Shown here: piece after piece, positions 1 through 6,338 of the stretch
How positions within the stretch are numbered: the stretch's first letter is position 1
Layout: every line of letters begins with the position of its first letter
Origin: a virus
Lineage: Duplodnaviria; Heunggongvirae; Uroviricota; Caudoviricetes
IMG/VR virus record: IMGVR_UViG_2681813271_000011
Length of the DNA stretch: 6,338 nt
Reading direction: 5' to 3' (one strand)
Notes under the pieces: model-generated
Databases searched by the model: none
Seen by the model: only the letters and a program-made list of their open reading frames with translations
What the model was told of the DNA's origin: nothing
Position numbers and translations under genes: made by a program

Positions 1-1
1 G

Positions 2-1456
2 AACGGTACTTTTATCTATTGGTTGAACCTCAACACGCCGGGGAACCTTCGCGGTATCACAACACGCTGTGTTCTGTTAGATGAGGTCAGTAGCTGCGAA
101 ATCACTGATGAAGGGAACCCAATCAAACTGGCAGAAGCACGTACCAGTACCTTCGGTAGTGACTCACTGGTGGTTGTATCTTCCACGCCATTGTATAAAG
201 ACGATTTAATCAATGCTGAGTACAACCTCAGTGATAAACGTAGGTACTTTGTTACTCACACATGCGGTCATGAATATACTTTTGAATGGGAACAAGTAGC
301 GTTTGAATTTAAGCAATTAGAAAATGGTAGATCCATTCCTGATAGTACTACTACTCGTTTGTTATGCCCTCATTGCAATGAGGGAATAGATGAACATACA
401 CGGCATCAGATGGTTGATAATGGTCGATGGATTGCAACTAATCCAGATGGGGAACCGGGTGTAGTAGGGTATCAAATCAGTAGAATGTATTCACCTCTGA
501 ATACTATTACTGAAATGGTTTCAAAGTTTGCTGATGCTCTATATAACTTCAATCTTCAAACCTTTTACAATAACGAATTGGGCTTGCCATTCGAAGATGA
601 GTATCAAAAAGAATTAGATATTCTCCAATTAGAATCCCTACGAGAAGATGAATTTAACCTTTATAAAATTCCTGAAAGTACCTTAGCGTTGTGTATTTCA
701 GTTGATCAGCAGGGTGATAGGCTGGAAAGTCTGCTTTTAGGTTTTGATGAAAAGAACATTTATGTACTTGGGCATGAGTTTTTCTACTCCCACGATTGTA
801 CGAAGATTGAAGCCCCAGCTTGGAAGGATTTAGATCAGTTTTGCCGTCAGGATTTCAGTACTGTATCAGGTCGCATAGTACCTACACTGGCTGTGTTCAT
901 TGATGCAGGGAACGGTAACGCTACGGATACTGTGAAAAAATTCACTACACGTTGGAGTAAGTATCATCCGATCAAGGGTAGCAGCTCCACTACTGGTGAA
1001 CTATTCAAGACCAGTACTCAGGCGGGGTACAAACTACAGATCCTAAACGTACATGAACAGAAGAACACGATACGCCGCCTCCTGAACCTGATGCTATCCA
1101 GTGAGGCAGATAACGCCCCGGTTAAGCTCCGCTTCAGTAGTACCTTACCATCAGATTTCTTTGAGCAACTTTCAGCAGAGGAGTTAAAACCCGCTGGTGG
1201 TAAGTTGGTATGGCGATTAAAGAAAGGTCAAAGAAGAAATGAGGCTTTAGACCTAATCTGTTATGGAATGATCGCCATAGCATATGCCCAATCAAAATTA
1301 GGTACTCAACCATTCAGGAAGTTACGCGATTATAAAGCACAGGAAACCACTAAATACGAGATAAATAAAGTAGAAGAACCAAAACCAGAAACAGTACAAA
1401 AACCAAAACGGAATAGACGTACTGGAATGGGATCAAACTGGTTCGGTAAAAGATAA
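2..1456 (+). CDS. Terminase large subunit, lambda GpA-like family; 5'-truncated at the window edge
   Basis: The frame is open from position 2 to the TAA at 1454-1456, so the TTG at 23 in the ORF track is not the real start. A Walker-B-like hydrophobic stretch followed by DE (VLLDEVSS) lies near the fragment N-terminus. A Cys/His cluster (HTCGHEY...LLCPHCNEG) and the C-terminal motif [20 protein letters not shown] match what I recall of GpA-type terminases. The gene sits directly upstream of a portal gene. About 477 codons present fits the C-terminal two-thirds of a protein of roughly 640 aa. Confidence 0.85.
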
Positions 1457-1459
1457 GGA
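1455..1459 (+). promoter_or_regulatory. Shine-Dalgarno-like site (AAGGA) overlapping the terminase stop codon, 8 nt upstream of the ATG at 1468
   Basis: Sequence aaagaTAAGGAtatcaaaaATG; the terminase TAA at 1454-1456 overlaps the AAGGA. This suggests translational coupling. Confidence 0.6.
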
Positions 1460-1467
1460 TATCAAAA

Positions 1468-2049
1468 ATGACACTTCTACCAGAAAAGATCTACATGGTA
1501 TCGAATCCCATGGATCTAACGGTATTAGTACCCGCTGCTACTATTCTTGTTATTAGTTTTACATCATCTGGAAAAAGTACCTCATTAGATAATTTAAATG
1601 GTAGTACTTCAAAAGAATTTACGGTTGTATTAGATATGAGTACAGCNNNNNNNNNNNNNNNNNNNNNNNNNNNNNNNNNNNNNNNNNNNNNNNNNNNNNN
1701 NNNNNNNNNNNNNNNNNNNNNNNNNNNNNNNNNNNNNNNNNNNNNNNNNNNNNNNNNNNNNNNNNNNNNNNNNNNNNNNNNNNNNNNNNNNNNNNNNNNN
1801 NNNNNNNNNNNNNNNNNNNNNNNNNNNNNNNNNNNNNNNNNNNNNNNNNNNNNNNNNNNNNNNNNNNNNNNNNNNNNNNNNNNNNNNNNNNNNNNNNNNN
1901 NNNNNNNNNNNNNNNNNNNNNNNNNNNNNNNNNNNNNNNNNNNNNNNNNNNNNNNNNNNNNNNNNNNNNNNNNNNNNACTTTCTCTAATGGCGGTAAACC
2001 AATCAAGAGTATTACGGTTTTCAGGCCTAAGCCAGGGAGTACACGCTAA
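1468..2049 (+). CDS. Hypothetical protein between terminase and portal (the position lambda gpW occupies); interior replaced by a 331-N gap, so it may be one gene or two
   Basis: ATG at 1468 has a good SD. The N-terminal 59 codons ([59 protein letters not shown]) are readable before the N run at 1647-1977. After the gap the same frame ends at the TAA at 2047-2049, which overlaps the portal ATG by one base (TAATG). No family was recognised from the visible residues. Confidence 0.45.
1647..1977. other. Run of 331 N (assembly gap or masked sequence)
   Basis: Uninterrupted n characters. The true length and content are unknown, and the frame relationship across it is not informative. Confidence 0.99.
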
Positions 2050-5390: not shown

Positions 5391-5714
5391 ATGAGAGTAT
5401 TTAAAGATACGCAGTGTGATGCGTTTCTAAATGCTTTCGGTCAGTCTATCCAAACTTGTACGGGAAGTACTTTTACAGGAATAGTAGAAGTACTTCCCGT
5501 TTCTATTGAGGCGGCAGGTGGATTTATCGAAAGCGTGGAAACATACCTAACAATCAGAAAGGACGATCTAATAACCGCAAACGTGGCAATTGGTACAGTA
5601 CTAATCATTGATGGTGTAAACCAGACAATCTATAACATTGAAGATGATCTATCAGGTATGGTTAATTGCTATTTCCGTACTTCTGCTGGTGCTTCATTTG
5701 CAGAGGACTACTAA
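5391..5714 (+). CDS. Hypothetical protein; putative head-tail connector or head completion protein (assigned by position only)
   Basis: A 107-aa ORF. The ATG at 5391 is preceded by AAGGA (5379-5383) with a 7-nt spacer, and lies 13 nt after the capsid stop. Its small size and location between capsid and tail genes suggest the function; no diagnostic motif was recognised. Confidence 0.55.
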   Translation: MRVFKDTQCDAFLNAFGQSIQTCTGSTFTGIVEVLPVSIEAAGGFIESVETYLTIRKDDLITANVAIGTVLIIDGVNQTIYNIEDDLSGMVNCYFRTSAGASFAEDY

Positions 5715-5715
5715 T

Positions 5716-6108
5716 ATGATGTTAGTACAAAAAGTACGGAATACGATGAAGCAGCTTATCAATGCTACTAAGAATCTGACAGTATCACGTGATGTTGATG
5801 TATTTGAACAAATTGCTTTTGATTACTCATTAACGAGTTTAAGTTTCAGCAATGAACGCCGGGCAGGTAACTTTGCAATTCAGTATCTGATTTCCCCTAA
5901 ACCAGAATCAGGTAATACAGCCCCATCCATCACTTATGATCAGATTATTAGTACTTTTGATAAAGAGAAAACTTCAGCATTCAGTGATGCAGGTTTAATA
6001 ATGCTTTCGTGTTCTTATGAACAATCCGATATTGTCACAGATCCTATAACTGGCTCGGTTTCCCTATCCTTTACGATAAATATTCAAGTTACGGAAAAGA
6101 CAAGATAA
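5716..6108 (+). CDS. Hypothetical protein; putative neck or tail-terminator-like protein (assigned by position only)
   Basis: Tandem ATGs at 5716 and 5719 are preceded by GAGGA (5704-5708) and lie 2 nt after the upstream stop. The encoded protein is about 130 aa (MMLVQKVRNTMKQLINATKNLTVSRDVDVF...). The track ORF starting at 5638 would overlap the previous gene by 77 nt and add a hydrophobic N-terminus; I consider 5716 the likelier start. The gene sits immediately upstream of a major-tail-like gene, as lambda gpU does. Confidence 0.5.
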   Translation: MMLVQKVRNTMKQLINATKNLTVSRDVDVFEQIAFDYSLTSLSFSNERRAGNFAIQYLISPKPESGNTAPSITYDQIISTFDKEKTSAFSDAGLIMLSCSYEQSDIVTDPITGSVSLSFTINIQVTEKTR

Positions 6109-6125
6109 CTAAAAGGATATAAAGG

Positions 6126-6338
6126 ATGAGTGATATTTTCTCAGGAAGAGAATTATCAGTACAGTATAATGCTGATATTGGTAACAGAACACCACAGGGA
6201 GCAGGCAATGTAGTAATTAAACAGATTAATACTTTTCCAACCTTAACAATAAATTCAGAAGCAAATAATTTTGAAACGTATGATAGTGATTACAGGACAG
6301 TACTACTATCTGATAAATCAGTAGCACCATTTGATATT
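6126..6338 (+). CDS. Major tail (tube) protein, lambda gpV-like, 3'-truncated at the window edge
   Basis: The ATG at 6126 is preceded by AAAGGA sites and followed by 71 codons with no stop to the window end (MSDIFSGRELSVQYNADIGNRTPQGAGNVVIKQINTFPTLTINSEANNFETYDSDYRTVLLSDKSVAPFDI). The segment ETYDSDY followed by DKS.AP resembles the ESYDDSY...KSAGD region I recall near the N-terminus of lambda gpV. It is absent from the ORF track only because no stop codon lies inside the window. Confidence 0.5.
   Translation, partial: MSDIFSGRELSVQYNADIGNRTPQGAGNVVIKQINTFPTLTINSEANNFETYDSDYRTVLLSDKSVAPFDI

Follow-up and report, generated by a model that had tools for sequence, protein, structure and literature searches.

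Short palindromes are treated in phage genomics almost solely as words that are avoided. The highly iterated palindrome HIP1 (GCGATCGC) of cyanobacteria and cyanophages is a described case of a word in excess: it is hyper-abundant, occurs in all reading frames and in non-coding DNA, and is conserved between orthologues, with Elhai 2015 reportedly being the literature example. Here we analysed a 6,338-nt stretch of a tailed-phage genome (the window; IMG/VR record IMGVR_UViG_2681813271_000011), which is identical in sequence to nt 6-6264 of IMG/VR contig IMGVR_UViG_2671180405_000018 (L046), and in which the tetramer GTAC and the palindrome AGTACT built on it are over-represented. The window belongs to a family of temperate siphoviruses that enriches this one palindrome and shuns others absolutely. 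We conclude that the (A)GTAC(T) excess is real and acts at the DNA level, that the word is actively maintained, and that what is enriched is a GTAC core whose two flanking bases are preferred independently of each other, which is equivalent to AGTAC on either strand.

The likeness to HIP1 lies in a dispersed palindrome that is present in all frames and in non-coding DNA, with orthologue conservation above background. In HIP1, however, it is the complete 8-mer that is in excess, and cognate methyltransferases are linked with it, whereas here the hexamer is no more frequent than its pentamers predict (ratio 1.01), the search of the phage turned up no methyltransferase and the degree of enrichment is much lower. 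Restriction-site avoidance resembles the present bias in being a coding-independent, DNA-level selection on palindromes of 4-6 bp, and the same genomes show its textbook form; for GTAC and AGTAC, in contrast, the sign is reversed, with a 2-10-fold excess that is graded and not all-or-none. The enzymes ScaI and Eco255I (AGTACT), RsaI (GTAC) and TatI (WGTACW) recognise the same words, and restriction-modification systems of these specificities predict depletion, or neutrality where the phage carries a methyltransferase. In the family studied here AGTACT-specific depletion is seen only in two lineages (L030 and L065), and the cognate genes were not found in the phage.

Very short patch (VSP) repair in E. 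coli, which raises CCWGG and lowers CTAG, demonstrates that repair can enrich a functionless word and is the model for the main rival explanation considered below. It differs from the present case, in which the precursor words are not clearly depleted, all six positions are protected, the phage has no Vsr- or Dcm-like genes and the host lacks the bias. Chi, the FtsK-orienting polar sequences (KOPS) and the DNA-uptake sequences (DUS, or uptake signal sequences, USS) are over-represented short words, maintained genome-wide, that mark DNA for protein machinery, in the case of DUS and USS as 'self'; unlike the 5-6-mer of these prophages, which has no polarity, they are 8-12-mers with strand polarity and known readers. 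The site of the nucleoid-occlusion protein SlmA of Enterobacterales, with the consensus GTGAGTACTCAC, has AGTACT at its centre between GTGAG and CTCAC arms, and SlmA is found in the same hosts, but its site needs a G before AGTACT, which is the rarest base at that position here. The bias is thus a lineage-specific, maintained one that lacks the defining properties of HIP1, Chi, uptake sequences and VSP repair.

A word maintained at the DNA level

The 5978 called bases of the window hold 66 copies of GTAC and 18 of AGTACT, where the zero-order expectation is 20.8 and 1.9; in the unmasked sequence the counts are 70 and 20. A hand count in the original prediction had given 18 AGTACT and about 65 GTAC, with about 2 and 20-25 expected, and our exact recount agrees with it, including all listed positions and the two codon registers (10 AGT-ACT and 8 A-GTA-CTN). 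The 18 called copies, to which no strand is assigned, are as follows:

344..349, AGT-ACT register (Ser-Thr), terminase
857..862, AGT-ACT register, terminase
1013..1018, AGT-ACT register, terminase
1603..1608, AGT-ACT register, immunoglobulin (Ig)-like ORFan
2261..2266, A-GTA-CTN register, portal
2910..2915, AGT-ACT register, portal
3215..3220, A-GTA-CTN register, portal
3696..3701, A-GTA-CTN register, protease-capsid gene
4081..4086, AGT-ACT register, protease-capsid gene
4296..4301, A-GTA-CTN register, protease-capsid gene
4525..4530, AGT-ACT register, protease-capsid gene
5086..5091, A-GTA-CTN register, capsid part of the fusion gene
5132..5137, AGT-ACT register, capsid part of the fusion gene
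5466..5471, AGT-ACT register, head-tail attachment gene
5489..5494, A-GTA-CTN register, head-tail attachment gene
5597..5602, A-GTA-CTN register, head-tail attachment gene
5950..5955, AGT-ACT register, 156-aa open reading frame (ORF)
6299..6304, A-GTA-CTN register, start of the fibre-like gene

AGTAC occurs 40 times and GTACT 30 times in the window, and GTAC sites are spread over every gene and the spacers in between. None of the 256 tetramers is more over-represented than GTAC (z ~10) and the hexamer ranking is headed by AGTACT and CAGTAC, while GCGC and CTAG are absent (8.3 and 21 expected). Zero-order and k-mer scoring rule out chance or composition as the cause. Ser-Thr dipeptides are written AGT-ACN in 20 of 23 cases, though AGT accounts for only 48 of 148 Ser codons, and the earlier statement that those of the terminase mostly take this form holds for 6 of 8.

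Could codon usage, codon pairing or an amino-acid effect (GTA, TAC, ACT and AGT codons; Ser-Thr-rich proteins), or chance, account for these counts? Part of the AGTACT excess in the window is absorbed by order-2 and order-3 Markov models (5.2 and 12.4 expected vs 18 found), and Val is mostly encoded by GTA (75 of 131 codons), whereas TAC is the minor Tyr codon (18 vs 43 TAT). We addressed this explanation with 500 synonymous shuffles that keep the protein and its codon usage, and with a dicodon shuffle that also fixes the junction dinucleotides, hence fixing the GTA-C register by construction and being very conservative. The coding sequences of the window contain 15 AGTACT, compared with 5.0 +/- 2.0 after synonymous shuffling, where none of 500 shuffles reaches 15, and 9.7 +/- 2.3 after dicodon shuffling, where 11 of 500 do. 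In three 21 kb relatives (L001-L003), the observed 46-59 copies, compared with 12-16 (synonymous) and 24-32 (dicodon), are reached by 0 of 500 shuffles under either null. When all 4-, 5- and 6-mers are scored against the codon-shuffle null, AGTACT tops the 4096 hexamers (155 vs 43.7, z = 17), the pentamers are led by AGTAC and GTACT and the tetramers by GTAC.

The excess of GTAC is also about 2-fold in each of the three reading frames, and the coding strand is balanced (AGTAC 278, GTACT 288). Pooled ORF-free DNA of the family contains 258 GTAC, 150 AGTAC and 80 AGTACT where 113, 40 and 12.5 are expected, and the intergenic regions annotated by the Prokaryotic Genome Annotation Pipeline (PGAP) in an E. 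coli prophage copy contain 18 GTAC (7.7 expected). A coding or chance origin therefore retains a practically negligible probability. Two of the checks that the original prediction had named, synonymous shuffling as one that could refute it and enrichment in non-coding DNA, come out in its favour, and its claim that the DNA word, rather than the protein, is under selection is supported in concert by the three frames, the non-coding DNA, the strand symmetry and the retention at synonymous sites.

The part of that claim which made the palindromic hexamer the selected unit did not stand. Across 46 loci, AGTACT was found 2085 times, while 2060 copies are predicted from independent flanks, N(AGTAC) x N(GTACT) / N(GTAC), a ratio of 1.01, and the same product gives 18.2 for the 18 copies of the window. 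Maximal-order Markov ratios are 1.34 for GTA, 1.34 for GTAC and 1.30 for AGTAC, with each hexamer at ~1.0, and bases beyond the hexamer carry almost no information. Against the codon null, GTAC without an A or T flank is at ~1.0, with one flank at ~1.7 and with both at 3.5; A before the core and T after it are each present in ~55% of cases, compared with a background of 31%. The base preceding AGTACT follows the order C > A > T > G. Non-palindromic copies are divided between the top (66) and bottom (73) strands with no switch point, and this lack of polarity, seen also on the coding strand, speaks against an oriented motif of the Chi or KOPS type. Site spacing is Poisson-like (coefficient of variation of the gaps ~1) with only the 3-nt periodicity of coding DNA, and operator-like clusters and helical phasing were rejected on this spacing.

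The maintenance of the word is evident at silent sites. Most pairs within the family are near synonymous saturation (median codon difference 0.49), and yet every clade retains the enrichment. In moderately diverged pairs, third-codon positions within AGTAC or AGTACT change at 0.46-0.50 of the rate of the same codons elsewhere (z = -5 to -6), and in deep pairs the ratio is 0.62-0.68, while for the control words GATC, AATT and ATAC it is near 1.0. Protection extends to all six positions (A0, G1, T2, A3, C4, T5), with ratios of 0.48-0.74, including 0.66 at T2 and 0.72 at A3. As in HIP1, sites are conserved between orthologues above the synonymous background. The excess is upheld at silent sites against the host's own bias.

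A lineage trait with sharp borders

The family has genomes of ~36 kb and 37-40% GC and occurs as prophages across Enterobacterales, to which all detected hosts belong (E. coli, Shigella, Scandinavium, Enterobacter, Klebsiella, Cedecea, Rahnella, Citrobacter, Buttiauxella and Phytobacter). It is large, uncultivated and common in E. coli, Klebsiella and Enterobacter; the best portal match among named phages has 31% identity, and megablast of the window against the INPHARED phage collection gave no nucleotide-level match. In more than 60 loci with portal identities of 40-100% and 36-41% GC, GTAC is found at 2-3 times and AGTACT mostly at 5-12 times the number expected from composition. Relative to a codon-aware null, GTAC is enriched 1.4-1.8-fold family-wide. 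Owing to the flank preferences, the enrichment is ~4-fold for AGTAC, whichever strand is read, and ~8-10-fold for AGTACT, in which two copies of the pentamer overlap.

A complete prophage of ~35.6 kb lies between two halves of ybhA in E. coli ESBLEC_MG48 (NZ_CM132639; L069 6265-41882). It contains 261 GTAC (121 expected) and no GCGC (43 expected), whereas its E. coli flank has the opposite bias, with 11 GTAC (24 expected) and 61 GCGC (27 expected). GTAC density is ~8 per kb in the phage compared with ~2 per kb in the host, and the excess halts at the prophage/host junctions. A host signature, one of the explanations offered originally, is refuted by this flank, while a phage oligonucleotide signature is correct as a description. 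Within the prophage, conserved core genes carry the word, but an accessory block (an OLD nuclease and its neighbours), a SegE gene and a phosphatase gene do not, although their GC is equally low. The paired signature of GTAC-rich, GCGC-free DNA at ~38% GC sharply separates the core genes of the family from host DNA and from recent cargo.

The signature is absent or reversed in the homologous module of lambda, in phage DCP80 and in two unrelated contigs of ~40% GC (L064 and L066), and it is not a general property of low-GC coliphages. L064 and L066, which were found via a distant tape-measure match, have 11 GTAC (57 expected) and 33 GTAC (79 expected), no AGTACT and abundant GCGC. The structural region of the 141 kb Escherichia phage DCP80 (L070, nt 1-17645) lacks GATC altogether (63 expected) and is neutral for GTAC and GCGC. 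Segments of 45-54% GC that contain GCGC and no GTAC excess interrupt or end the phage sequence in L010 (14500-19732) and L022 (16000-18000); these may represent flanking host DNA, a mosaic insertion or chimerism of the contig.

Enrichment of a palindrome had been called unexpected in a phage, and it is unusual indeed, as the same genomes strongly deplete other palindromes. GCGC occurs 44 times in 947 kb (L001-L068) where 1255 copies are expected, and all 44 sit in a few loci that also hold higher-GC foreign segments; this absence is far stricter than usual restriction avoidance. CTGCAG, CAGCTG and TTCGAA are strongly depleted. Two hexamers that contain the GTAC core are avoided as whole words, namely GGTACC (34 vs 212 expected), which is tolerated only in L032, L036, L028 and L063, and CGTACG (10 vs 77 expected). 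AGTACT is depleted relative to its own pentamers only in L030 (0.32) and L065 (0.41), where AGTACC, GGTACT and CAGTAC are enriched, and it looks as if these two lineages meet an enzyme of the ScaI/Eco255I type. CTAG is lineage-dependent, being gone in several lineages and normal or slightly raised in others (110 vs 67 expected in L026), a contrast drawn between L007, L034, L042 and L048 on one side and L026, L021 and L040 on the other, and CCWGG is missing in L023 and L042. The pattern of CTAG, CCWGG and GGTACC suggests lineage-specific restriction pressures.

Possible causes of the maintained excess

Several mechanisms that would yield an excess of GTAC were tried and rejected. A restriction target of the ScaI or RsaI type under avoidance is at odds with a word enriched in the window and in most relatives. 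A double CpG transition from GCGC to GTAC would pass through GTGC and GCAC, which are not in excess, and the words that replace GTAC in alignments are diffuse. Nor is GTAC a by-product of avoiding other palindromes, since synonymous resamples purged of these contain 86 and 107 GTAC vs 166 and 174 observed. The full SlmA site has no copy, and there is one relaxed match, in 26 loci. The variants of the EbfC/YbaB site GTNAC (GTAAC, GTTAC, GTCAC and GTGAC) stand at 0.81-0.97 of codon-shuffled expectation, and the mapped motif of gyrase is a degenerate 130 bp pattern without a GTAC core.

We tentatively favour, at a probability of roughly 0.4, the view that selection, weak but genome-wide, maintains a graded site for recognition or deformation that is read by a symmetric architectural or DNA-handling protein. 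At the centre of the site would be GTAC with its highly deformable TpA step, to which the two flanks would contribute additively as half-sites, and the reader would be a symmetric, probably dimeric protein acting on double-stranded DNA, either a phage ORFan or a host nucleoid protein. The contrast in GTAC density, four- to five-fold over the host, might then distinguish or condition phage DNA relative to the chromosome, and the site would not be an all-or-none restriction or modification target. The graded, additive flanks are more in line with the energetics of binding or deformation than with the strict site of an enzyme, and the TA step in GTAC has been reported as the most deformable base-pair step (PMC12393610). 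If such a reader exists, the word would form, in a temperate phage, a new dispersed-motif system to set beside Chi, uptake sequences and HIP1, and one that is experimentally accessible because lysogens are among the sequenced E. coli isolates.

A number of observations weigh against selection for a site with a reader. No candidate methyltransferase, site-specific nuclease or DNA-binding protein was identified by PGAP, Pfam or PHROGs in the complete E. coli prophage; the Pfam and PHROGs searches covered every non-structural gene in two genomes, and most of these genes are ORFans without a match in either. The conserved large early protein is a superfamily 2 (SF2) helicase and the conserved ORFan of the packaging module is Ig-like. 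The spacing analysis, with neither clusters nor helical phasing of sites, indicates no particular process. Blocks of 5 kb without the word occur, so that whatever benefit a site brings is small. The G/C-clamped TpA class to which the core belongs is weak under the codon-aware null (CTAC 1.3, GTAG ~1.0, CTAG 0.92), and biased repair that restores the whole word would yield the same retention statistics. It should be noted that in our search of the literature we came across no description of phages enriched in GTAC or AGTACT, nor of AGTACT methylation in enterobacteria.

Non-adaptive bias is the foremost of the rivals and, in our estimate, unlikely: context-dependent mismatch repair or gene conversion, phage- or host-encoded, would restore or create (A)GTAC(T), much as VSP repair does with CCWGG in E. 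coli and as has been proposed for HIP1, and the word would be functionless. Retention at synonymous sites is equally expected from such a process, the nested gradient from GTA to GTAC to AGTAC resembles a context effect, recently acquired genes lack the word as they would under a slow process, and no reader protein has come to light. The deamination neighbours of the word, however, are barely depleted (AGTATT 0.73, AATACT 0.93, GTAT 0.87, ATAC 1.00), and with protection at all positions this led us to reject VSP-like deamination repair. The words that replace GTAC are diffuse, no known T:G-specific patch repair would protect T2 and A3 along with the other four positions, the phage has no gene for a Vsr or C5-methyltransferase, and a symmetric 6-bp footprint exceeds usual mutational contexts. 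Moreover, the bias of the host chromosome, on which the same host repair enzymes act, is the opposite. We consider selection acting on the word likelier than biased repair; should repair be the cause after all, it would reveal a sequence-directed repair activity not known before. DNA mechanics without a dedicated reader is distinctly unlikely. Here the kinkable G:C-clamped TpA step would be favoured, with GTAC preferred, while long A/T runs and promoter-like hexamers would be disfavoured, which would tune flexibility, occupancy by H-NS or other nucleoid proteins, and spurious transcription of an AT-rich element in a host of 51% GC. In keeping with this, besides the deformability of its TA step, S-TA-S makes up 0.21 of TA steps in the family vs 0.14 expected, compared with 0.35-0.67 of expectation in all controls; across lineages rho(GTAC) trades off with rho(CTAG) and rho(CTAC) (Spearman -0.50 and -0.57, uncorrected for phylogeny), with GTAC at 1.76 in CTAG-free lineages and 1.40 in the others; and in the coding DNA of 10 loci TATAAT and TTGACA are at 0.57 and 0.53, and A/T runs of at least 6 and at least 8 at 0.85 and 0.78, of codon-shuffled expectation. 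Under the codon-aware null, however, the S-TA-S class effect is almost wholly GTAC, the A and T flanks are kept as strongly as the core, which a bare hinge would not predict, and A/T runs are only modestly depleted, whether or not they contain TpA.

It is also quite improbable that AGTAC is the target of sequence-specific modification by a phage ORFan, such that more modified sites would give more protection from nucleases, for example from translocating nucleases or those that discriminate self from non-self. Such an enzyme could hide among the ORFans, a pentamer on either strand fits an asymmetric enzyme site, and the strict absence of GCGC shows that these genomes are under nuclease pressure. 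Against it, the complete annotated prophage yielded no gene for a methyltransferase, a glycosyltransferase, DpdA or a Mom-like protein, the enrichment is graded whereas enzyme sites are normally all-or-none, and extensive site avoidance is typical of unmodified DNA. The avoidance of GGTACC and CGTACG, and of AGTACT in two lineages as if these were exposed to a ScaI-type enzyme, likewise disfavours the earlier suggestion of a site protected by base modification. A historical signature, inherited from an earlier low-GC host or ancestor and not lost since, would explain why GC and dinucleotide usage are far from those of present hosts (rho(TA) 0.95 vs 0.71; rho(CG) ~0.8 vs 1.16), and GCGC-specific enzymes are classic in Pasteurellaceae; yet passive decay predicts no excess retention, which is found here above background even in deep pairs at near-saturated synonymous sites and in each clade, and the detected hosts all belong to Enterobacterales, making this origin very improbable. 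We speculate, as a long shot, that (A)GTAC(T) might serve as a 'self' code which, together with the absence of GCGC, would amount to two-word discrimination of self from non-self in a temperate phage. A phage-encoded binder or modifier would then read the word at ~250 places in each genome and so mark, condense, de-silence or protect the DNA, and a GCGC-directed nuclease, phage-encoded or recruited, would hit host or competitor DNA (GCGC is 2-fold enriched in the host) and spare the phage.

Genes of the window and of the complete prophage

The genes and gaps of the window are as follows, gaps being without strand:

2..1456, plus strand, 3' part of the large terminase, lambda gpA type; ATPase and nuclease domains are visible in a full-length homologue
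1468..2049, plus strand, ORFan restricted to the prophage family, 176 aa when unmasked; modelled as an Ig-like beta-sandwich with two helices
1647..1977, scaffold gap, 331 N for 280 true bases that include 4 GTAC and 2 AGTACT
2049..3557, plus strand, portal protein, lambda family, PF05136
3505..5377, plus strand, prohead protease (S78) fused to the major capsid protein, 614-aa ORF when unmasked
4683..4711, scaffold gap, 29 N for 1 true base
5391..5714, plus strand, head-tail attachment protein, with a weak Phage_attach match
5638..6108, plus strand, 156-aa ORF from a TTG, function unassigned and start uncertain
6126..6338, plus strand, start of a fibre-like gene of ~1016 aa in total; the C-terminal part of a homologue has an endosialidase-chaperone domain

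Both runs of N are scaffold gaps of arbitrary length, and the second breaks the frame, so that the protease-capsid ORF looks split in the window. Unmasked, the S78 protease, a linker or scaffold region and the HK97-fold major capsid protein form one fusion ORF. The ORFan between terminase and portal (9471-10001 in L007) is conserved at ~176 aa; its AlphaFold model (pLDDT 78) predicts two long helices beside the beta-sandwich, matches generic Ig domains only and contains no DNA-binding fold.

The family has the characters of lambda-type temperate siphoviruses (gpA/Nu1 terminase, PF05136 portal), with a gpA-type ATPase/nuclease, a lambda-family portal and an HK97-fold capsid by Pfam. Proteins of the tail tube, tape measure and tail tip are present as well, as is an integrase, and integration into the chromosome splits the target gene. 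In the prophage of E. coli ESBLEC_MG48, which was inserted by its large serine recombinase, there are also genes for a divergent SF2 helicase, for GIY-YIG endonucleases and for an OLD-family nuclease, besides those for morphogenesis and lysis and numerous ORFans. Just one gene of replication type could be recognised, that for the fast-evolving SF2 DExH helicase of 650-1026 aa (L069 8900-10852 and homologues), with the motifs GTGKT, DExH and SGT in the alignment; no repressor, primase or polymerase was recognisable.

The OLD-family ATP-dependent nuclease (AAA_15 and OLD-like TOPRIM; L069 14668-16488, minus strand) is flanked by minus-strand ORFans and has a low GC and 1 GTAC where 5.8 are expected, and it looks like recently acquired defence cargo. 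Free-standing homing-type endonuclease genes of the HNH/NUMOD4 and SegE-type GIY-YIG kinds are found in L007 (345-872), L044 (19715-20149) and L069 (11060-11440 and 38031-38486); such genes are more typical of virulent T4- and T5-like phages than of a small temperate phage. The integration target ybhA is a pyridoxal-phosphate phosphatase gene, and a prophage-borne 'pyridoxal phosphatase' gene without the GTAC signature (L069 40883-41722) adjoins the right junction, where it may replace the lost ybhA function.

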